Source: PVC group bacterium (lineage in GTDB: Bacteria > GCA-001730085 > JADFSZ01). From it: DNA of 6,518 nt. Of the stretch, positions 1 through 6,518 are shown piece after piece. The DNA lies in the NCBI GenBank assembly GCA_022560555.1, contig JADFSZ010000099.1, forward strand, positions 1 through 6,518, in the 5' to 3' direction. The position numbers and the translations under genes are program-made. The notes under the pieces were generated by a model. That model saw only the letters and a program-made list of their open reading frames with translations, was not told the DNA's origin and searched no databases. Numbering within the stretch: the stretch's first letter is position 1; every line of letters begins with the position of its first letter.

Positions 1-850
1 GGAACTTTGTCTTTAGATCATGAGATCAGTGTTGTGGATAACAACTCAACGGATGGATCTCAGGAAGCGTTTCAAAGCACCTGGGGGTCTCGTATTGAAC
101 TGATTGAAAACCGGGTGAATTGCGGATTTAGCCAGGCGGTTAATCAGGGGCTTCGAAAATCGATTGGCAAGATGATCCTGCTGATCAATTCCGACGTTAT
201 TTTAAATGATGAAGCCCTGAAAGCGATGGCGGCCTATATAAAGGCGCATCCGGATTGCGGGATGGTGTCTGTTCAGCTCCTTGATGAGGATGGCAAAAAG
301 CAGAATTCTTATGATACCTACCCATGCCTGAGAACGGAAGTATTGGGGAAGCCCCTCACCCGGTATCTCACACGTCGTTTCGGAGCTCACAGGAGCCCCA
401 AGGATGAGGTGATGATGGTAGAGAGTTTGGTAGGAGCCTGTTTTTTGGTGTCACGTGAAGCTCTTGGGGTTGTGGGTCCTATGGATGAACGCTATTATTT
501 TTTTATGGAAGAAACAGAGTGGTGTTATCGCATGAATCGGCAAGGATTTCATATTGCGTTTTTACCCCAAGTCAATGTGATTCATAAACAGGGGCAAACA
601 GCGAGTCAATACTGGTATGAAGCTCGCGTTGAGTATCATATCAGCAAGTATCTTTTTTTTGATCAAGTTTACGGATGGCCCTTACGCGTATGCTCACAGG
701 GTTTATCCGCGTTTAGATGCGGAATCAATTTTCTTTTTAATGCCGTGTTAGGCGTTTTTGTGTCTCAAAATAGAAAAAGAGCGGGCCTTTATGGCTATTT
801 GTTGATGTGGCATGTGCGCGGATGTCCCGGAACGTGGGGCTTGAGAATGA
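1..850 (+). other. GT2 (Glycos_transf_2, WbbL/rhamnosyltransferase-like) catalytic domain of the fusion protein, N-terminus off-window
   Basis: Motifs VVDNNSTDGS, NxGFxxAxNxG, NSDV and EETEW-x-YR...H-x-x-G occur in the order typical of soluble GT-A fold GT2 enzymes. The domain end is approximate. Confidence 0.75.
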
Positions 851-2514
851 ATGAAGCGAAAAAGGTTGAAAAATGTGATGGTTCATCTTCGGGCAAAAAC
901 ACGGTTTGGGTTCGGCAACATATCCCTGAGGATGTAAAAAATGAAATTATCCGGATAACAAAAATGATAGATCAGCCTAGAGCGGAGACGGAATATTTCT
1001 CTTTATTAAAAGAATCGAGTGTGAGAAAAATATGGCGCTTCTCATCCGTTGGGGCGTCAGGATTTGTGATAAAAAAACACATACCCAAGGGAGCCGGAAA
1101 GTGGGTGCGGCAATGGTTCTCGCCCTCACAGGCGAAAAGAGAATATCAAGCTGCGTGGCATTTGCAATCCCTCGGCTTGCCGACGGTGACGCCACTTGCC
1201 TATGGCACAAGTACTCACCAGGGTCCCCGAAAGGAATCATTTATTATTTTTGAAGAAATAAAGAATTTAGGTGTTTTGTCAGTTATTTACGAAGATTTTC
1301 AAAAAAACGGCTGTTCATTTCCGAAGGACGATTTGAAATGTCTTGCCGAGATAACGGCCAAAATGCACACACGTAACATTTATCACGCGGATTTCCATAT
1401 CGGGAATATCGGTGTCGTCAGCCATGGATCAGGCAAACAGTTCATTATTATGGATCTACAGCGGATAAAGTTCAAAGGACATTTGTCTAAAAGGAATCGA
1501 AAAAGAGATCTAGCCTATTTTGTGAGTCGATTTTTAAAAAACGATGCTTTGGCTTTTATCAAAGCGTATAATTCATTTTGTTCGGGGCATAAAGATATTG
1601 TGTTTGATGAGATATGGAGGCTTAAACAAAACATTGGAAACAAAAAACGTAAAAGGCGTTTAGCGCAAGCTCTTTATCCGAAGGGAAGCTGTGTTGTCCG
1701 GGAACATGGCTATAAGATTATTTTAGCCGGACGAAATTTTCAAAATCTGATCAAGAACGAATCAATATGGCCGGCTAAGGTCAAAGCCAATCCGGAGAAT
1801 AGAGTCATAAAAAAGTCAAGAACGTCTCAGGTTTATTATGGGAATTTTGGTAATATTGGGACTTGTTATTATAAAATTGATAATTCCCGCGGAGTTTATG
1901 ATTTTATAAAAAATATATTTCGACCCAGCCGGGCTCTGAGAGCTTGGCGGGCCTTGGCTCGTTTAGAACTTTTGGGCTTTCGTGTGCCACAGGCCGTTTT
2001 GTGTGCCGAAAAAAGAAACCTGATATTTTGGCGGGAGAGTTTTCTTATCACAAAATCCGTATCAGGAGCCGTATCTTTAGACCGGTATATCAAAGAGAAC
2101 GAATTATCTGAGAACTTTGCCGCCAAAAAGAAGTTTATTCTGGAGAACTTGGCCGATTTGCTTTTCAGACTGCATCTGCACAAAATTTACCATGCGGATC
2201 TCAAAGCGGCGAATATTCTTATCGATCCAAAAAATCTCGAGATGACGATTATTGATACGGATCGTGTGTATTTTAAGAAATGTCTTTTCGAGAAACATAT
2301 TGTTAAAAATCTATCACAGCTCAATGCCTCGTTTTTTGAAAATGTCAGTATGAAAGAACGGATGCGTTTTTTTCAAAAATACACACAAGGCGCCATGAGT
2401 CGCCCCCAACGATCCCGAGTTTTAAAGGCTGTTCAAACGAAAACAATTTCACGTTGGAAAGAGATCGGAAGATCCGTAAAGAGTATTCCCGGGGGGGCGA
2501 TGAACCATGCCTAA
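1..2514 (+). CDS. 5'-truncated multidomain protein: family-2 glycosyltransferase fused to two tandem lipopolysaccharide-kinase (Kdo/WaaP family, protein-kinase-like) domains
   Basis: The frame is open from nt 1 (GGA ACT precede the TTG at 7, with no upstream stop). The usual GT2 N-terminal strand (xSIIIPxYN) is missing, so the true start lies upstream of the window. GT2 motifs: EISVVDNNSTDGS, NCGFSQAVNQG, LLINSDV (DxD-like), FFMEETEWCYRMNRQGF...VIHKQG. These are followed by two kinase-like modules with HADFHIGN/MDLQR and HADLKAANILID/IDTDR. Stop is TAA at 2512-2514. Confidence 0.85.
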   Translation, partial: GTLSLDHEISVVDNNSTDGSQEAFQSTWGSRIELIENRVNCGFSQAVNQGLRKSIGKMILLINSDVILNDEALKAMAAYIKAHPDCGMVSVQLLDEDGKKQNSYDTYPCLRTEVLGKPLTRYLTRRFGAHRSPKDEVMMVESLVGACFLVSREALGVVGPMDERYYFFMEETEWCYRMNRQGFHIAFLPQVNVIHKQGQTASQYWYEARVEYHISKYLFFDQVYGWPLRVCSQGLSAFRCGINFLFNAVLGVFVSQNRKRAGLYGYLLMWHVRGCPGTWGLRMNEAKKVEKCDGSSSGKNTVWVRQHIPEDVKNEIIRITKMIDQPRAETEYFSLLKESSVRKIWRFSSVGASGFVIKKHIPKGAGKWVRQWFSPSQAKREYQAAWHLQSLGLPTVTPLAYGTSTHQGPRKESFIIFEEIKNLGVLSVIYEDFQKNGCSFPKDDLKCLAEITAKMHTRNIYHADFHIGNIGVVSHGSGKQFIIMDLQRIKFKGHLSKRNRKRDLAYFVSRFLKNDALAFIKAYNSFCSGHKDIVFDEIWRLKQNIGNKKRKRRLAQALYPKGSCVVREHGYKIILAGRNFQNLIKNESIWPAKVKANPENRVIKKSRTSQVYYGNFGNIGTCYYKIDNSRGVYDFIKNIFRPSRALRAWRALARLELLGFRVPQAVLCAEKRNLIFWRESFLITKSVSGAVSLDRYIKENELSENFAAKKKFILENLADLLFRLHLHKIYHADLKAANILIDPKNLEMTIIDTDRVYFKKCLFEKHIVKNLSQLNASFFENVSMKERMRFFQKYTQGAMSRPQRSRVLKAVQTKTISRWKEIGRSVKSIPGGAMNHA
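991..1585 (+). other. Lipopolysaccharide-kinase (Kdo/WaaP, PF06293-like) domain 1
   Basis: Candidate beta3 Lys in VIKKH (K at 1072-1077). Candidate alphaC Glu in AKREYQAAWHLQSLGLP (E at 1141-1143). Catalytic loop YHADFHIGNI (1381-1410). Metal-binding IIMDLQR (D at 1453-1455). Boundaries are approximate. Confidence 0.7.
1690..2385 (+). other. Lipopolysaccharide-kinase (Kdo/WaaP, PF06293-like) domain 2
   Basis: Candidate beta3 Lys in CYYKID (1873-1875). The helix ALRAWRALARLELLGFRVP aligns residue for residue with the domain 1 helix. Catalytic loop YHADLKAANILID (2188-2226) is near-canonical HxDLKxxN. Metal-binding IIDTDR (2248-2265). Boundaries are approximate. Confidence 0.75.
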
Positions 2515-3289
2515 TGTATCCATTGTTGTGCCGGTTTACAATCAACCTGAAGTGACAAAACAATGTCTCGAGAGTTTGTTGGCTCACACTTATCAAGGGT
2601 GCGAAATACTTGTGATAGATAACGCTTCTGATGGCCCTACACAGTCGTATTTAAAAACACTGCCTGTGAGGCTTATCACAAACGATGTGAATCGAGGATG
2701 CGCGGGAGCCTGGAATCAGGGAGTGCGTTTGAGCTGCCACGAATATATTTGTATTGTTAACAATGATATTGTTGTCACGCCCGGCTGGCTGGAGGCCCTT
2801 ATGAATTTTTTTCAATCACATCATTATAGTATGATTTCACCCGCGATGAGGGAGGGTGAATTGGATTACGATCTTGATCAATTTAGTCGTCAATTCCAGA
2901 ATTTATGGCGTGATGTGACCCTGAGAGGCGAATTTTACGGAGTGTGTTTTCTGGCCCATCGTACGTTGTATCAAGAGGTGGGACTCTTTGATGAGAATTT
3001 TCGTTTCGGGAAATTTGAAGACGAAGACTTTTATTTTCGTATGCGAAATCAAAATAAAGAAGCGGCCGTAACATGTACCGCATTCATTCATCATTTCGGA
3101 AGCAGGACCATTCAAACTCTTAAGAAAACCCAGGGAGATTTTGAAGAGGATAACCGTAAGTATTTTCAAAAAAAGTGGAAAAAACTTTACTTATGGCGCA
3201 AACTCCGTAAGTGGCGTCTCCTCGGACATCATAAACATGTTACGGACCTTATAAACCGGACACGCGCTTTTATTGCCGGCTCTAAGTGA
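2507..3289 (+). CDS. Family-2 glycosyltransferase (small soluble GT-A type)
   Basis: N-terminus is MPNVSIVVPVYNQPEVTKQCLESL (classic GT2 start), then ILVIDNASDG, NRGCAGAWNQG, IVNNDIVV and FEDEDFYFRMR...IHHFGS. ATG 2507 overlaps the upstream TAA (2512-2514) by 8 nt, and a G-rich stretch (GGGGGGG around 2489-2496) may serve as an SD. Stop is TGA 3287-3289. Confidence 0.88.
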   Translation: MPNVSIVVPVYNQPEVTKQCLESLLAHTYQGCEILVIDNASDGPTQSYLKTLPVRLITNDVNRGCAGAWNQGVRLSCHEYICIVNNDIVVTPGWLEALMNFFQSHHYSMISPAMREGELDYDLDQFSRQFQNLWRDVTLRGEFYGVCFLAHRTLYQEVGLFDENFRFGKFEDEDFYFRMRNQNKEAAVTCTAFIHHFGSRTIQTLKKTQGDFEEDNRKYFQKKWKKLYLWRKLRKWRLLGHHKHVTDLINRTRAFIAGSK

Positions 3290-4107
3290 GATTTGGTACA
3301 ATACCAAAGGATGAACATAAGGGTATGAATAAGACTATGAACAAAAAACCGCTCTCAAGCTTGTCGATATTTTTCCCCTGCTTTAATGATTCCGGGACCA
3401 TCGCGAGTCTTGTTGTTCTTGCGGATCAAATAGCGAATGAATTAACAGACGATTATGAAGTCATTGTTGTTGACGATGGGTCGACGGATGCCAGCCGTGA
3501 CATTCTTATCAGGTTATCCAAAGACTATCCTGCTCTAAAATTGATTCTGCATAGCAAGAATATGGGATATGGCGGTGCGTTAAGGTCAGGATTCCTCGGA
3601 GCGGATAAGGAATGGGTGTTTTATACGGACGGAGATAACCAATATGATGTGCGGGAATTGAAACGCTTGTGCGAACATGTATGTCCTGATATCGATGTGA
3701 TTAACGGATACAAAGTAGAGCGTTCGGACTCTTTGCACAGAATCATTATTGGTAAGACATATCACTATATTATGAAAATCATGTTTGGATTAAAGATCCG
3801 TGATGTTGACTGTGATTTTCGTCTGATAAGAAAAAGTGTTTTTAGCCAATTTCAATTAAAATATAAAAGCGGGGTTGTGTGTGTGGAACTCATAAAGAAA
3901 ATGGAGCTTTTGGGACTCAACTTCGTTAATGTCCCCGTTCAGCATTATTTCCGTATGCACGGTAAATCCCAGTTTTTTAATTTTCGACGATTGTTGAAAG
4001 TTGCTATTGATATTTTTCGCCTATGGGGGGATATCTTTATCGTGTCTAAAATTCGATATAACAAAGAATCGGCCCCGTCCAAAACCCGAGAGATATCATC
4101 AAGATGA
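3286..4107 (+). CDS. Family-2 glycosyltransferase, DPM1/ArnC-like (likely polyprenyl-phosphate sugar transferase type)
   Basis: Motifs LSIFFPCFNDSGTI, YEVIVVDDGSTDAS, KNMGYGGALRSGF, YTDGDNQYD (DxD) and DCDFRLIRKSVF. The start is uncertain. GTG 3286 gives a GTGA 4-nt overlap with the upstream stop. In-frame ATG 3325 and ATG 3337 each lie 13 nt downstream of an AAGGA/AAGGG, and they give an N-terminus of more typical length before the LSIFFP strand. Confidence 0.8.
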   Translation: MRFGTIPKDEHKGMNKTMNKKPLSSLSIFFPCFNDSGTIASLVVLADQIANELTDDYEVIVVDDGSTDASRDILIRLSKDYPALKLILHSKNMGYGGALRSGFLGADKEWVFYTDGDNQYDVRELKRLCEHVCPDIDVINGYKVERSDSLHRIIIGKTYHYIMKIMFGLKIRDVDCDFRLIRKSVFSQFQLKYKSGVVCVELIKKMELLGLNFVNVPVQHYFRMHGKSQFFNFRRLLKVAIDIFRLWGDIFIVSKIRYNKESAPSKTREISSR

Positions 4108-5108
4108 GAGAATTTGACATCGCAAAAATGTTTGATCATAAGAACGTTCTGATCACAGGTGGTCTTGGTTTTATCGGCAGCACCGTTGCCAGATATCTTG
4201 TCCAAAAAAGCTCGGCGCGCATTGTTCTGGTGGACTCATTGATTCCTGATTACGGCGGGAATCTTTTTAATATCAACGGGATTGAAGAACGCATGCATGT
4301 GAATATTGCGGATGTGCGTGATGAAAACACCATGAACAATATTGTTAAAAAGCAGGATGTTATATTCAATCTCGCGGGAACATCATCGCATGTTGATTCG
4401 ATGAAAGATCCGTTTACGGATTTGGATATCAACTGCCGAAGCCAATTGTCTATTTTGGAAGCCTGTAGAAAACATAATCCAAATGTCAAAATTGTTTTTT
4501 CGGGAACGCGGGGGGAGTATGGACGGGCAGATTATCTCCCGGTTGACGAGAAACATCCGTTGCATCCCACGGACGTTAACGGTATCAACAATATGGCCGG
4601 GGAATGGTATCACATATTGTATAACAATGTGTATGATATTCGTGCGACCTCATTGAGATTAACCAACACGTATGGACCGCGCCATCAGATGAAGCATAGT
4701 AAGCAAGGTTTCTTGAATTGGTTCATACGCCTCGCGATGGAGGATAAAGAAATTCCCATCTATGGCGACGGGGCTCAAAAAAGGGATTTTAACTTTGTTG
4801 ATGATGTGGCTATGGCCTTGATGATAGCGGCCGCGGATGACAAAGCGAATGGGAGAATCTATAATTTAGGAACCCTGGAACCCGTGAGCGTGGCGGATAT
4901 AGCCCGGATGATTATCAAAGAACTCGGACAGGGACGAATTAAGTTTGTTCCTTTCCCGGAGGATAAAAAGAGAATAGAAATCTGGGATTTTTATAGCGAT
5001 TACGGAAAAATAAAAGATGAGCTTGGTTGGAAGCCAAGTACTTCATTGGCTCGAGGGCTTAAAGATACGATCCGGTTTTATAAGAACAACAAAGAGCATT
5101 ATTGGTGA
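4104..5108 (+). CDS. NAD-dependent epimerase/dehydratase family protein (extended SDR), atypical active site
   Basis: Rossmann motif VLITGGLGFIGS (GxxGxxG, 4158-4178), then NLAGTSSHVDS, FSGTRGEYG, RLTNTYGPR, YGDGAQKRDFNFVDDV and the C-terminal LGWKP motif. Start/stop overlap with the upstream gene is ATGA (4104-4107). The canonical YxxxK position reads NGINN (4578-4592). Confidence 0.85.
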   Translation: MREFDIAKMFDHKNVLITGGLGFIGSTVARYLVQKSSARIVLVDSLIPDYGGNLFNINGIEERMHVNIADVRDENTMNNIVKKQDVIFNLAGTSSHVDSMKDPFTDLDINCRSQLSILEACRKHNPNVKIVFSGTRGEYGRADYLPVDEKHPLHPTDVNGINNMAGEWYHILYNNVYDIRATSLRLTNTYGPRHQMKHSKQGFLNWFIRLAMEDKEIPIYGDGAQKRDFNFVDDVAMALMIAAADDKANGRIYNLGTLEPVSVADIARMIIKELGQGRIKFVPFPEDKKRIEIWDFYSDYGKIKDELGWKPSTSLARGLKDTIRFYKNNKEHYW

Positions 5109-6229
5109 ATGTGAACATTCCTTTCTTCTATTATCAGCGTGAATATAAAAACATTCGAGCAGATCTCCAAAAAGCGGCCGGGGATGTATTTGCTTCAGGA
5201 CGATTTATTCTTGGCGATCATCTCAAATCATTTGAACAACAATTCGCACAATTTTGTGGGGCCCCATTTGCTGTTGGTGTCGCAAGCGGAACGGATGCGC
5301 TGACACTCGCCCTTTTGGCTTGTAGACTGAAGCCGGGAGATGAGGTGATAACAGTTGCCAATGGGGCTTATCCGACCATAGTGGGGATTGTAAGGGCAGG
5401 ACTTCGTCCGGTATTTGTTGATATTTGTCCCGAAACATGGCTCATGGATTCCAAACAGATCGCGGGCGCTTGTTCCAAAAAAACGAAAGCCATTATTCCC
5501 GTCCATCTTTTCGGGAATATGGTTGATATGAAGGCCTTGTCCAAAAGTGCGAAAACAAAAAAACTGATTGTTATTGAAGATGCGTGTCAAGCTCATGGAG
5601 GGATTCTTGATAAAAAGAAAGCCGGAACTTTTGGGCGTTTCGGATGTTTTAGTTTTTATCCAACCAAAAATTTGGGGGCCTTCGGAGACGGCGGGGCCAT
5701 CATTATGCATCGTCAAAAGGATTATAACGCCTTAAGACAGTCGAGAAATTATGGGCAATCGGATCGGTACAATCATCCCGTATTTGGATTGAACAGTCGT
5801 CTTGATGAATTGCAGGCGGCCTATTTGAGCGTTAAACTCAAATATTTAAAAAGATGGAATCAGTGGCGATCCCATCTAGCTCATTTGTATCGAGAACATC
5901 TGAAAAAAATTGATGAGATTTCCATGCCTTGTATAAACCCCTTAAGCCGGCAAACCCATCACTTATTTGTGATCCGAGTCAAAAAGAGAAATGCCCTGCA
6001 GGCCCATCTAGCCAAACAGGGGATTATGACCCTCATTCATTATCCGATTCCGGCTCACAGACAAAAAGCCTTTCTGGGGCTTGGTTATAAGGCGGGAGAT
6101 TTGCCTCATACGGAGAGATGCTGCCGCGAAATTTTATCCCTTCCCATAAGCCCCTTTTTAAAACCTTCTGAAGTGCGTACTATTTGCTCTTTGATTGAAG
6201 GGTATTATAAGAAAAATACCCGTTCGTGA
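5102..6229 (+). CDS. DegT/DnrJ/EryC1/StrS family PLP-dependent sugar aminotransferase
   Basis: Motifs FILGDHLKSFEQQFAQFCG, VASGTDALTLAL, PGDEVI, IIPVHLFGN, IEDACQAHG and FSFYPTKNLGAFGDGGAI, with the Schiff-base Lys at 5666-5668. Start candidates are TTG 5102, GTG 5105 (GTGA overlap with the upstream TGA at 5106-5108) and GTG 5111. AAAGAG at 5091-5096 is a possible SD. The gene ends with tandem in-frame stops TGATGA (6227-6232). Confidence 0.9.
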   Translation: MVNVNIPFFYYQREYKNIRADLQKAAGDVFASGRFILGDHLKSFEQQFAQFCGAPFAVGVASGTDALTLALLACRLKPGDEVITVANGAYPTIVGIVRAGLRPVFVDICPETWLMDSKQIAGACSKKTKAIIPVHLFGNMVDMKALSKSAKTKKLIVIEDACQAHGGILDKKKAGTFGRFGCFSFYPTKNLGAFGDGGAIIMHRQKDYNALRQSRNYGQSDRYNHPVFGLNSRLDELQAAYLSVKLKYLKRWNQWRSHLAHLYREHLKKIDEISMPCINPLSRQTHHLFVIRVKKRNALQAHLAKQGIMTLIHYPIPAHRQKAFLGLGYKAGDLPHTERCCREILSLPISPFLKPSEVRTICSLIEGYYKKNTRS

Positions 6230-6340: not shown

Positions 6341-6430
6341 ACTACTGAAATAGGGCATACTTTGGGTAACCAAAGGACGCAAAGTTACGGATCCCGCATG
6401 CACGGGATGGCCGATCTACCAGTGAATTTG
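6341..6430 (+). promoter_or_regulatory. c-di-GMP-I (GEMM-I) riboswitch aptamer, copy 1 (complete)
   Basis: The core GGGCATAC-TTTGG-GTAA-CCAAA-GGACGCAAAG (6353-6384) matches the remembered Vibrio cholerae Vc2 core GGGCAAACC-AUUC-GAAA-GAGU-GGGACGCAAAGCC, including a GNRA tetraloop hairpin. The second hairpin is CGG-ATCCCG-(CATGCA)-CGGGAT-GG-CCG (6388-6413), followed by CTACC (6416-6420), which resembles Vc2 UUACC. A possible closing helix is TACTG (6343-6347) with CAGTG (6420-6424). Outer boundaries are approximate. Confidence 0.85.
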
Positions 6431-6432
6431 AT

Positions 6433-6473
6433 AATCGTATTGGTTGAGAAGCCGTACGATTTTTTTGGTTTTT
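6433..6473 (+). terminator. Intrinsic (rho-independent) terminator; likely expression platform of riboswitch copy 1
   Basis: Stem AATCGTA(T)TGGT (6433-6444) pairs with GCCG-TACGATT (6451-6461): 7 Watson-Crick pairs, then 2 G-C and 2 G-U pairs with one bulged T. The loop is TGAGAA. A T-run follows at 6460-6466 (its first two T lie in the stem), then GG, then TTTTT (6469-6473). Confidence 0.6.
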
Positions 6474-6480
6474 ACAGTCG

Positions 6481-6518
6481 ATAAAGGCAAACCTTGAGTA
6501 ATCAAGGGACGCAAAACT
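6481..6518 (+). promoter_or_regulatory. c-di-GMP-I (GEMM-I) riboswitch aptamer, copy 2 (5' half only, truncated by window end)
   Basis: The core GGCAAAC-CTTGA-GTAA-TCAAG-GGACGCAAAACT (6486-6518) has the same architecture as copy 1. Two compensatory base-pair changes occur in the tetraloop stem relative to copy 1. The second hairpin and the 3' strand lie beyond the window. Confidence 0.7.

Follow-up and report, generated by a model that had tools for sequence, protein, structure and literature searches.

The window analysed here, a 6,518-nt stretch of DNA, opens within a gene that encodes a GT2 glycosyltransferase joined to two kinase modules, termed K1 and K2 (1-2514, forward strand; stop codon at 2512-2514), the 5′ end of which lies beyond the window edge. 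Further genes on the forward strand encode a GT2 glycosyltransferase of 260 aa (2507-3289), an ArnC-like polyprenyl-phosphate glycosyltransferase of the GT2 type (3286-4107, 273 aa), an SDR-type NDP-sugar dehydratase/epimerase (4104-5108, 334 aa) and a DegT/DnrJ/EryC1-family sugar aminotransferase (5102-6229, 375 aa). The downstream GT2 gene was assigned to the operon of the fusion gene, since its start overlaps the fusion stop by 8 nt; an exact-protein look-up of its product gave no match. The ArnC-like enzyme was detected by PF00535 (81 bits), with ArnC (NF007986, E-value 4.5e-21) as its best NCBIfam match, and the SDR protein by PF16363 and PF01370, with dTDP-glucose 4,6-dehydratase as its best NCBIfam match; both NCBIfam scores were under the cut-off. 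The aminotransferase matched PF01041 at 337.9 bits. Tandem c-di-GMP-I riboswitches were also observed, at 6344-6518.

Frame 1 was found to be free of stop codons through 1-2511, in agreement with the single uninterrupted frame of the preliminary description, but the gene extends past the 5′ end of the window. An open reading frame listing had placed it at 7-2514 (835 aa) with an internal TTG start, while comparison with one ortholog of 95% identity (P0001), from which alone the N-terminus was estimated, indicated that about 28 codons are missing from the window. Searching the JGI metagenome collection for exact DNA matches did not yield the upstream flank. As the contig is metagenomic, its 5′ end is absent and separate GT2 and kinase genes often adjoin, the possibility that the long frame is an assembly or frameshift artefact joining such genes was considered. 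Contig L001 of an independent assembly (GCA_022561295.1), 95.6% identical in DNA over 2065 nt, was found to carry the frame unbroken through both the GT2-K1 and K1-K2 junctions, and the P0001/L001 ortholog supplies the N-terminus in the same frame as the window gene. The pN/pS ratios (GT2, 0.16; K1, 0.24; K2 N-lobe, 0.10) point to purifying selection on all domains of the fusion protein. Since the ortholog frame continues through both junctions and every part is under purifying selection, the fusion is not considered an artefact; distant orthologs of 26-31% identity that are collinear across all three domains, and a confident AF2 model (mean pLDDT 88.2, pTM 0.71), likewise make this explanation extremely improbable. 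Two gaps in the DNA alignment of the window with L001 were examined as a candidate compensating frameshift, which was rejected: only 4 nt separate the gaps, the lengths of the two sequences agree, and the region represents clustered substitutions (SHGSGK versus DHRTSK).

The proposed three-domain architecture of a GT2 and two PF06293 domains was borne out by a Pfam scan of the whole protein and by separate scans of the modules. The GT-A catalytic core of the GT2 (nt 1-612, aa 1-204) was delimited by PF00535 (aa 6-94, 54-57 bits against a cut-off of 23.3; 73.3 bits in the full-length ortholog), and by PF13641 (aa 10-203); Foldseek matched GT-A enzymes. Residues D13, D18, N63/D65 and E170/E171 were invariant in alignments with relatives, with N63/D65 forming an NSD sequence at the DXD-type position of GT2. 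The label "WbbL-like" was not retained for this domain, as the WbbL-type rhamnosyltransferase family TIGR01556 scored 56.4 bits against a cut-off of 200.55. The core is followed by a C-terminal extension (nt 613-855, aa 205-285) predicted by AF2 to form helices at 205-224, 226-250 and 255-272. This extension includes the most hydrophobic segment of the whole protein (aa 235-255) and probably represents a membrane-interface region; a transmembrane anchor in the GT2 tail was also considered and found to be unsupported, with a peak 19-residue Kyte-Doolittle hydropathy of only 1.52 (at aa 236).

Both kinase modules were complete, as the preliminary description had held. K1 (nt 898-1605, aa ~300-535) matched PF06293 at 63.7 bits when nt 871-1680 were scanned alone (E-value 2.1e-17), and K2 (nt 1690-2463, aa ~564-821) did so at 77.0 bits for nt 1681-2511 (E-value 1.8e-21; cut-off 21.3 in both cases). 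The catalytic loops were located exactly where first reported: 1384-1407 encodes HADFHIGN in K1, which aligns with the H161-R-D163...H168 segment of WaaP, and 2191-2214 encodes HADLKAAN in K2, whose H, D and N vary little or not at all across the family. Residues K51, E78, H161, D163, H168, D188 and R191 of WaaP correspond to K358, E381, H462, D464, N469, D485 and R488 of K1, such that all six WaaP-type active-core features (beta3 Lys, alphaC Glu, H-x-D, Mg-ligand, metal Asp and Arg) are present in this module; these residues were conserved in 30-31 of 31 family members, except for R488 (20/31). The key residues of K2 are K625, H731, D733, K735, N738, D752 and D754, with K51, H161, D163, D188 and R191 of WaaP mapping to K625, H731, D733, D752 and R755. 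The two modules align over ~230 residues at 22% identity (E-value 1e-12) and are thus old paralogues; neither recent duplication nor an artefact of repeat collapse accounts for them.

K1 and K2 are joined by a basic connector helix (nt 1603-1683, aa 535-561; AF2 prediction and family motif), modeled at a low pLDDT of 52-65. The NKKRKRR sequence reported for this region is present, although at 1639-1659, 3 nt off the 1636-1656 originally given. The strongly basic linker of the preliminary description is part of a connector conserved in the tandem kinase family and predicted to be helical, and so is not special to the fusion. The family consensus is (R/K)..SR.KRCL, of which the window protein keeps the basic character and R553, aligned with an Arg in 28 of 31 members, but not the K-R-C of the SRxKRCL motif. 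Zero substitutions separate this connector from that of the ortholog.

When the modules were compared with characterized enzymes, WaaP (RfaP), the LPS core heptose(I) kinase and a PF06293 protein like K1 and K2, was the top PDB match by both sequence and structure (Foldseek, P. aeruginosa WaaP 6DFL_A, E-value 1.2e-11, target-normalised TM 0.65 over 256 columns). WaaP is a single domain of ~268 aa, whereas the window protein combines two kinase modules and a GT2 on one chain; in addition, the Mg-ligand position is Asn in both window modules in place of His168, and the substrate-binding Tyr165 of WaaP is His in K1. Among curated NCBIfam families, K1 leaned to RfaP/WaaP (NF011703, 67.9 bits; KdkA, 31.4 bits), while K2 had as its top match the Kdo kinase KdkA (NF002475, 64.1 bits; RfaP, 49.6 bits), a single-domain member of the same Pfam family. 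These scores lie below the equivalog cut-offs of 170 bits for NF011703 and 142 bits for NF002475, as do those of the whole protein (110.1 and 90.2 bits, respectively). The resemblance of K1 to a heptose kinase and of K2 to a Kdo kinase suggests that two different acceptor positions may be used.

Phosphorylation at two sites is plausible but not assured, because K2, unlike KdkA, does not have the alphaC Glu. The residue is replaced by A648 and was Ala, Ser, Val, Thr, Phe or Cys, but never Glu, in 31 of 31 family members. K2 could consequently be read as a pseudokinase-like scaffold that binds nucleotide or substrate and positions the acceptor or activates K1, with only K1 working and one phosphate added. 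In WaaP, for which K51, E78, H161, D163, D188 and R191 were functionally tested, the E78A substitution was strongly impaired, with a 128-fold rise in EDTA sensitivity, yet still supported growth (PMC6147952). The Planctomycetota relatives P0002-P0005 consist of a GT2, K1 and a tail weakly resembling the K2 N-lobe, and in these proteins the K2 C-lobe appears to be dispensable; derivation of the tails from a decayed K2 N-lobe is suggestive, not established, as they scored only 8-13 bits with a profile of that lobe. Against a scaffold, the K2 Lys, catalytic Asp, Asn and metal-binding Asp were kept in 31/31 members and the His in 30/31, which would be unusual for a dead kinase, and the K2 N-lobe is under strong purifying selection, as seen from its pN/pS. 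A noncatalytic K2 is, in our assessment, quite unlikely.

A different question is whether one or both modules act on proteins instead of sugars, as kinases controlling the glycosyltransferase or other proteins of the envelope. The HxDLKxxN loop of K2, Pkinase scores of 28.4-28.9 bits (under the cut-off of 31.7), matches of homologs to PF00069 and PF07714 and the frequent naming of family members as Bud32 or Ser/Thr kinase are in line with such a role, and P. aeruginosa WaaP itself reportedly has protein-tyrosine kinase activity. PF06293, however, scored well above Pkinase in both modules, WaaP was the best fold match, and the modules are repeatedly fused to or encoded beside glycosyltransferase families of core assembly. 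The regulatory segment of the activation loop is also absent, as in WaaP (PMC6147952). A protein kinase function was thus judged very unlikely.

The distribution of the kinase pair was determined by an exhaustive search of a 1.84-billion-protein library, in which 129 of the 149 best matches below P0001 were stand-alone tandem kinase proteins of ~550 aa. Matches to the tandem family formed a single stretch (query residues ~40-520 of 547) in many proteins of ~550 aa. Members of this family, from Planctomycetota, Thermodesulfobacteriota and Myxococcota (~520-600 aa), are collinear with window residues 291-837 through both modules and the connector and have the same catalytic residues, including a K2 that likewise has no alphaC Glu; the window protein differs by its extra N-terminal GT2. 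The statement that enzymes of this type are stand-alone and single-domain is correct for those characterized, but does not extend to the tandem form, which is a large family. Database names for its members include 'lipopolysaccharide kinase InaA family protein', 'Bud32' and 'phosphotransferase'. Counting architectures among the best 150 matches of the exhaustive search, which sets a lower bound, revealed at least the fusions GT2-K1-K2, GT2-K1-K2-GT9, GT4-K1-K2 and K1-K2-GT4. The GT2-K1-K2 form recurs in no fewer than four further clusters (P0130, P0152, P0174 and P0206), with Pfam domains confirmed and end-to-end collinearity with the window protein from the GT2 through the helical region to K1 and K2 at the 26-31% identity given above; a cluster mate is annotated as heptosyltransferase II. 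A profile search with the GT2-K1-K2 form in a word-indexed database returned mostly GT2-only proteins and did not return the query members, and was therefore unfit for counting.

Judged by these matches, the kinase pair is an unstudied family common among Planctomycetota and deltaproteobacteria-like phyla, of which the GT2 fusion is a rare recurring variant; the window protein, itself uncharacterised, is a variant of enzyme kinds already known. No description of a GT-WaaP fusion or of a tandem PF06293 protein was found in the literature, which is weak evidence of absence, as most subscription journals were outside the coverage. The fusion itself, as pathway enzymes on one chain, is incremental. 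Knowledge of core kinases comes almost entirely from a few single-domain proteobacterial enzymes, and the window opens onto a large unstudied double-kinase family in Planctomycetota, Thermodesulfobacteriota and Myxococcota, which is also a natural system for the role of a conserved kinase with no alphaC glutamate. The fusions to GT2, GT4 and GT9 serve as "Rosetta-stone" links that predict transferase-kinase partners and lead to testable hypotheses on core structure in phyla with barely known LPS chemistry. Core phosphates matter in that they allow the outer membrane to be held by divalent-cation bridges, and they are essential in P. aeruginosa (PMC3147165).

The gene neighborhoods were examined for clues to the glycan concerned. 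The 6,518-nt window itself was found to have no gene for a GT9 enzyme, Kdo or lipid A, and the neighbors present (two GT2s, SDR and DegT) would be just as compatible with a cluster for O-antigen or another glycan. In a scan of GTDB loci with a 7-sequence alignment as query, a GT9 and/or GT4 gene was found within 6 kb at 16 of 25 tandem kinase loci (10 with GT9), and all three loci of the GT2 plus single-kinase type had a GT9 gene (3/3). The gene for P0005 adjoins a GT9 gene, a Kdo hydroxylase gene (PF11004), an MsbA-like ABC exporter gene and two GT2 genes, and that for P0326 a PF02348 cytidylyltransferase gene of the KdsB (CMP-Kdo-synthetase) family. Several observations speak against a core role: P0002 is surrounded by housekeeping genes, a tandem kinase gene was also found in a Paceibacterota MAG (L010), a lineage not known to have LPS, and the NCBIfam scores of both kinases and the Glu-less K2 described above count in the same direction.

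The GT9, Kdo hydroxylase, MsbA-like exporter and KdsB-family neighbors of the relatives support an LPS inner-core role, which is favored by this context together with the WaaP-like fold. On balance, the fusion protein is probably a trifunctional, membrane-peripheral enzyme at the cytoplasmic face that participates in assembly of the LPS core or of a lipid-linked glycan much like it. With a nucleotide sugar as donor, the GT2 would add a sugar to the lipid-linked oligosaccharide as it grows, and K1 and K2 would then phosphorylate sugar hydroxyls of this oligosaccharide with ATP; the kinase pair would be an ancient conserved unit that, in the window lineage, became fused to the glycosyltransferase acting next to it in the pathway. 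The substrate, the step order and turnover by both kinases are what we infer in this scheme, as are the "heavily phosphorylated glycan" and "add-sugar-then-phosphorylate" step of the preliminary description. A precedent for the proposed functional logic is the waaP-wapP-wapQ-PA5006 operon of P. aeruginosa, in which several core kinases act together (PMC3147165). These are paralogous PF06293-type kinases that serve one inner core and are encoded with core glycosyltransferases, but as four separate polypeptides, whereas in the window two kinases and a glycosyltransferase are covalently joined.

Alternatively, the protein may act on a polyprenol-linked O-antigen, capsule or exopolysaccharide, with the GT2 extending or capping the chain and a kinase phosphorylating its non-reducing end, as in the chain terminators WbdD and ORF6 of K. 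pneumoniae O7. The window neighbors are typical of surface-glycan clusters (GT2, ArnC-like GT2, SDR and DegT), ORF6 already joins a glycan kinase and GT2 modules on one chain (methyltransferase, kinase, coiled-coil, GT2-GT2; PMC11231755), and WbdD is a kinase-methyltransferase (PMC3482155). ORF6 and E. coli O9a WbdD resemble the window protein in having several domains, among them a glycan kinase and further modules for glycan assembly. Their kinases, however, are of other lineages (AmiN/APH-like and WbdD-type) than the PF06293/WaaP-like modules of the window, and WbdD was absent from the PDB sequence matches at E ≤ 1. The methyltransferase, coiled-coil ruler and ABC-transporter O-antigen pathway of these systems also have no counterpart in the window: Pfam and NCBIfam scans detected no methyltransferase, the sole long helix in the AF2 model is the 27-residue connector (535-561) rather than a long coiled coil, and an ABC transporter gene is absent. 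Relatives, moreover, adjoin GT9, KdoO and KdsB-family genes. Action on such a polymer was considered unlikely.

Returning to the inner-core reading, assembly of the E. coli inner core interleaves a GT4 (WaaG), a kinase (WaaP), a GT9 (WaaQ) and a kinase (WaaY), the same enzyme classes as those joined in the tandem kinase fusions. A broader and tentative possibility, less probable than not in our estimation, is that K1-K2 constitutes a conserved machine that phosphorylates LPS in two steps outside the Proteobacteria (Planctomycetota, Thermodesulfobacteriota and Myxococcota), in which a canonical WaaP-like kinase is permanently paired with a second kinase that is Glu-less, otherwise intact and of distinct chemistry (such as adding a second phosphate to form a diphosphate, or phosphorylating Kdo), and the recurrent GT2, GT4 and GT9 fusions record the order of core assembly in these little-studied envelopes. 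If so, the window protein would represent a module complete in itself, which adds a sugar and phosphorylates twice.

The + strand of the window was open in frame 1 over bases 1-2511, with a stop at 2512-2514, and ORF calling (7..2514, TTG start, 835 aa) agreed with the single uninterrupted 835-codon frame given in the preliminary description; the 5′ end of this fusion gene lies outside the window, as the gene runs over the 5′ edge. Pfam searches identified a GT2 domain in the product (PF00535, 54.3 bits; PF13641 reaching residue 203) and matched PF06293 (Kdo/WaaP kinases) in two stretches. When scored alone, the first kinase module (K1, residues 291-560; 63.7 bits) and the second (K2, residues 561-837; 77.0 bits) each exceeded the PF06293 gathering score of 21.3, and thus the proposed pair of PF06293-like domains stood up to the HMM analysis. 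Translation placed the catalytic loops HADFHIGN and HADLKAAN at nt 1384-1407 and nt 2191-2214, respectively, just where they had been described, while the basic NKKRKRR motif between the modules was found at 1639-1659, 3 nt from the position first assigned to it. The two modules were only 22% identical across ~230 residues (E 1e-12) and are therefore ancient paralogues. Curated models were found to separate them, with K1 leaning toward WaaP (RfaP/WaaP 67.9 bits vs KdkA 31.4) and K2 toward KdkA (KdkA 64.1 bits vs RfaP 49.6); neither came near the equivalog cut-offs (170 bits for RfaP/WaaP and 142 bits for KdkA) needed to name it as WaaP or KdkA proper, and both are therefore filed only as PF06293 members.

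An assembly or frameshift artefact was essentially excluded by comparison with relatives, including: (i) the near-identical ortholog P0001 (contig JADFRM010000342.1 of the independent "PVC group bacterium" assembly GCA_022561295.1; 95% protein identity, 95.6% DNA identity over 2065 nt), in which the same frame spans both the GT2/K1 and the K1/K2 junction without a break until the contig ends inside K2; (ii) the mostly synonymous substitutions between the two sequences in every part (pN/pS of 0.16 for GT2, 0.24 for K1, and 0.10 for the K2 N-lobe; no change in the connector between K1 and K2); and (iii) the three-domain collinearity kept in distant proteins at 26-31% identity. P0001 also supplied the ~28 N-terminal residues missing from the window.

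An AlphaFold2 model of the fusion protein built from a 60-sequence alignment (mean pLDDT 88.2, pTM 0.71) resolved a GT-A core over residues 1 to about 204, followed by three long helices at 205-272, a junction of poor prediction quality at 285-300, K1 at about 300-535, another long helix at 535-561 (pLDDT 52-65), and K2 at about 564-821. The helices at 205-272 hold the most hydrophobic segment of the protein; however, its hydropathy of 1.52 is under the transmembrane level, so a role at the membrane interface appears likelier than a membrane span. The GT2 part matched GT-A transferases, and the closest PDB structure to the model was WaaP (6DFL, E 1.2e-11). PRPK/Bud32 ranked next. Residues shown by mutagenesis to be important in WaaP are K51, E78, H161, D163, H168, D188, and R191 (PMC6147952); by alignment these correspond to K358, E381, H462, D464, N469, D485, and R488 in K1 and to K625, A648 (the Glu being replaced), H731, D733, N738, D752, and R755 in K2. 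The K1 Lys, Glu, Asp, Asn, and Asp were kept in 30-31 of 31 tandem-family members. Alternatively, K2 may serve as a non-catalytic partner, given that its αC position never holds Glu in the 31 members (Ala 13, Ser 10, Val 3, Thr 2, Phe 2, and Cys 1), yet the K2 Lys, Asp, Asn, and Asp were kept in all 31; the missing Glu is therefore a family trait and not decay of the window's gene. With D13, D18, N63/D65, and E170/E171 of GT2 also invariant in relatives, the catalytic centers of all three domains look intact at the sequence level. The basic character ascribed to the connector was borne out but is not peculiar to this fusion, as R/K residues abound in the connector throughout the family (consensus ..(R/K)..SR.KRCL..) and R553 of the window protein lines up with an Arg that 28 of 31 members share.

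The K1-K2 region was searched exhaustively with HMMER against 1.84 billion representative proteins, giving 3925 matches at E<=1e-3, with P0001 ranked first. When the best 149 matches below P0001 were sorted by our own domain probes, with a Pfam check of long proteins, 129 were stand-alone kinase-kinase tandems (K-K) of about 520-600 aa, and the architecture is thus less unusual than claimed initially. The remainder were single kinases (7), K-K-K (6), GT2-K-K (3: P0130, P0152, and P0174), K-K-GT4 (3: P0089, P0162, and P0171), and GT2-K-K-GT9, with a heptosyltransferase-family domain (1: P0206). P0211, though placed by the probes among K-K proteins, was GT4-K-K by Pfam, and its cluster also contains a 1228-aa form and a fragment with the annotation heptosyltransferase II. 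The tandem is a large family, and GT2-K-K is a rare yet recurrent variant of it, represented among the best 150 matches by at least five clusters at 50% identity, the window's own included. Among GTDB species genomes, K-K was detected in Planctomycetota (including Kuenenia, Gemmatales, Phycisphaerales, and Isosphaeraceae), Thermodesulfobacteriota ("Deltaproteobacteria"), and Myxococcota. Database names for members were "lipopolysaccharide kinase InaA family protein", "phosphotransferase", and "Bud32", and our literature search found no papers describing the tandem family. The domains are of known kinds, while databases already contain both the fused architecture and the tandem family as a whole in uncharacterized form. 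For LPS specialists, the protein should be a useful way into this large, unstudied group of kinases. Three consecutive PF06293/RIO-like modules were seen in P0181 (815 aa) and P0170 (752 aa), so triplication of the module occurs alongside its duplication. In four proteins of 744-893 aa from Myxococcota, an uncultured deltaproteobacterium, and an unclassified bacterium (L023 4265-6499, L028 4726-7017, L032 4336-7017, and L033 4567-6948), K-K followed an N-terminal region of ~400-550 aa that had no match to the GT2, GT4, or GT9 probes.

The substrate was considered from gene context. Four genes on the + strand follow the fusion gene (2507-6229), each overlapping the gene before it by 4-8 nt, and encode a GT2, an ArnC-like polyprenyl-phosphate GT2, an SDR NDP-sugar dehydratase/epimerase, and a DegT aminotransferase. 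These neighbors provide only a generic glycan context; they resemble an Arn-like route, in which an amino sugar is made and loaded on polyprenyl phosphate for periplasmic-face transfer, and no GT-C transferase was found within the window. The relatives were more informative. Lipid A-core assembly is typified by GT9, Kdo-modifying enzymes, and MsbA, and GT9 genes were located within 6 kb at 10 of 25 GTDB K-K loci (GT9 and/or GT4 at 16 of 25). The P0005 gene (GT2-K1 plus a tail) has as neighbors two GT2 genes together with genes for a GT9, a Kdo hydroxylase (PF11004), and an MsbA-like ABC exporter, while P0326 (GT2 plus a Kdo domain) adjoins a cytidylyltransferase of PF02348, to which CMP-Kdo synthetase belongs. 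GT9 genes also adjoin all three GT2-single-kinase loci of Syntrophaceae-like genomes. The fusions there (L014 2302-4110, L017 5002-6744, and L027 5077-6750; 557-602 aa) are flanked in addition by a second protein, ~435-507 aa long, that carries a kinase module at its C terminus; in this layout the same parts are divided up differently. In E. coli the core is built in the order WaaG (GT4), WaaP (kinase), WaaQ (GT9), and WaaY (kinase), each needing the preceding step, and the fusions described above unite these very enzyme classes. Such joining of consecutive pathway enzymes on one chain is not very surprising, and the fusions offer Rosetta-stone evidence on pathway order.

On balance, we predict with moderate confidence that the protein is a membrane-peripheral LPS core-assembly enzyme of the cytoplasmic face, in which GT2 would add a sugar to the nascent core and the two different kinase modules would phosphorylate it; the fusion may have originated when a pre-existing K-K unit was joined to a pathway neighbor. 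Counting against an LPS-core role are (i) the lack of a core gene in the window; (ii) the location of P0002, a GT2-K1 relative, amid housekeeping genes; and (iii) the tandem Kdo-family kinase in a Candidatus Paceibacterota MAG (L010 5869-7638). Several single Kdo-family kinases were likewise observed in Patescibacteria/CPR MAGs (L036, L038, L042, and L044). To our knowledge, LPS synthesis is not expected in Patescibacteria/CPR, Paceibacterota included, and the kinases in these MAGs reflect either bin contamination or non-LPS substrates. The protein could instead act on O-antigen, capsule, or EPS in the manner of WbdD or of K. pneumoniae O7 ORF6, the latter being a characterized precedent for kinase and GT2 modules on a single chain (PMC11231755). 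However, the ORF6 kinase is of a different lineage, and the methyltransferase and coiled-coil parts of ORF6 are absent from the window protein. A protein-kinase function of the modules is a further, less likely alternative.

Four planctomycete relatives (P0002-P0005; e.g., L002 10001-12223 and L046 8001-9956) encode GT2 and K1 followed by a tail of ~130-180 residues. This tail can be aligned to the connector motif (RRCL.EN.DF) and, weakly (8-13 bits, too low for certainty), to the αC region of the K2 N-lobe, after which it ends; the alignment is a hint of an ancestral full second kinase that was cut down in this lineage.

The non-coding tail 3′ of the aminotransferase gene carries two tandem c-di-GMP-I (GEMM-I, RF01051; gathering score 35) riboswitch aptamers on the + strand, at 6344-6423 (56.8 bits) and 6476-6518 (39.3 bits, cut by the window end), with P1 hairpins that are two compensatory pair changes apart (CTTTGG/CCAAAG vs CCTTGA/TCAAGG). 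Between them, a + strand hairpin (ATCGTA...TACGAT) followed by TTTTTTT at 6434-6466 (RNAfold -12.1 kcal/mol for 6424-6476) is a candidate terminator-type expression platform of the first aptamer; it was missed by a simple terminator scan on account of its A/T-rich stem. The tandem aptamers presumably control the next downstream gene, outside the window.
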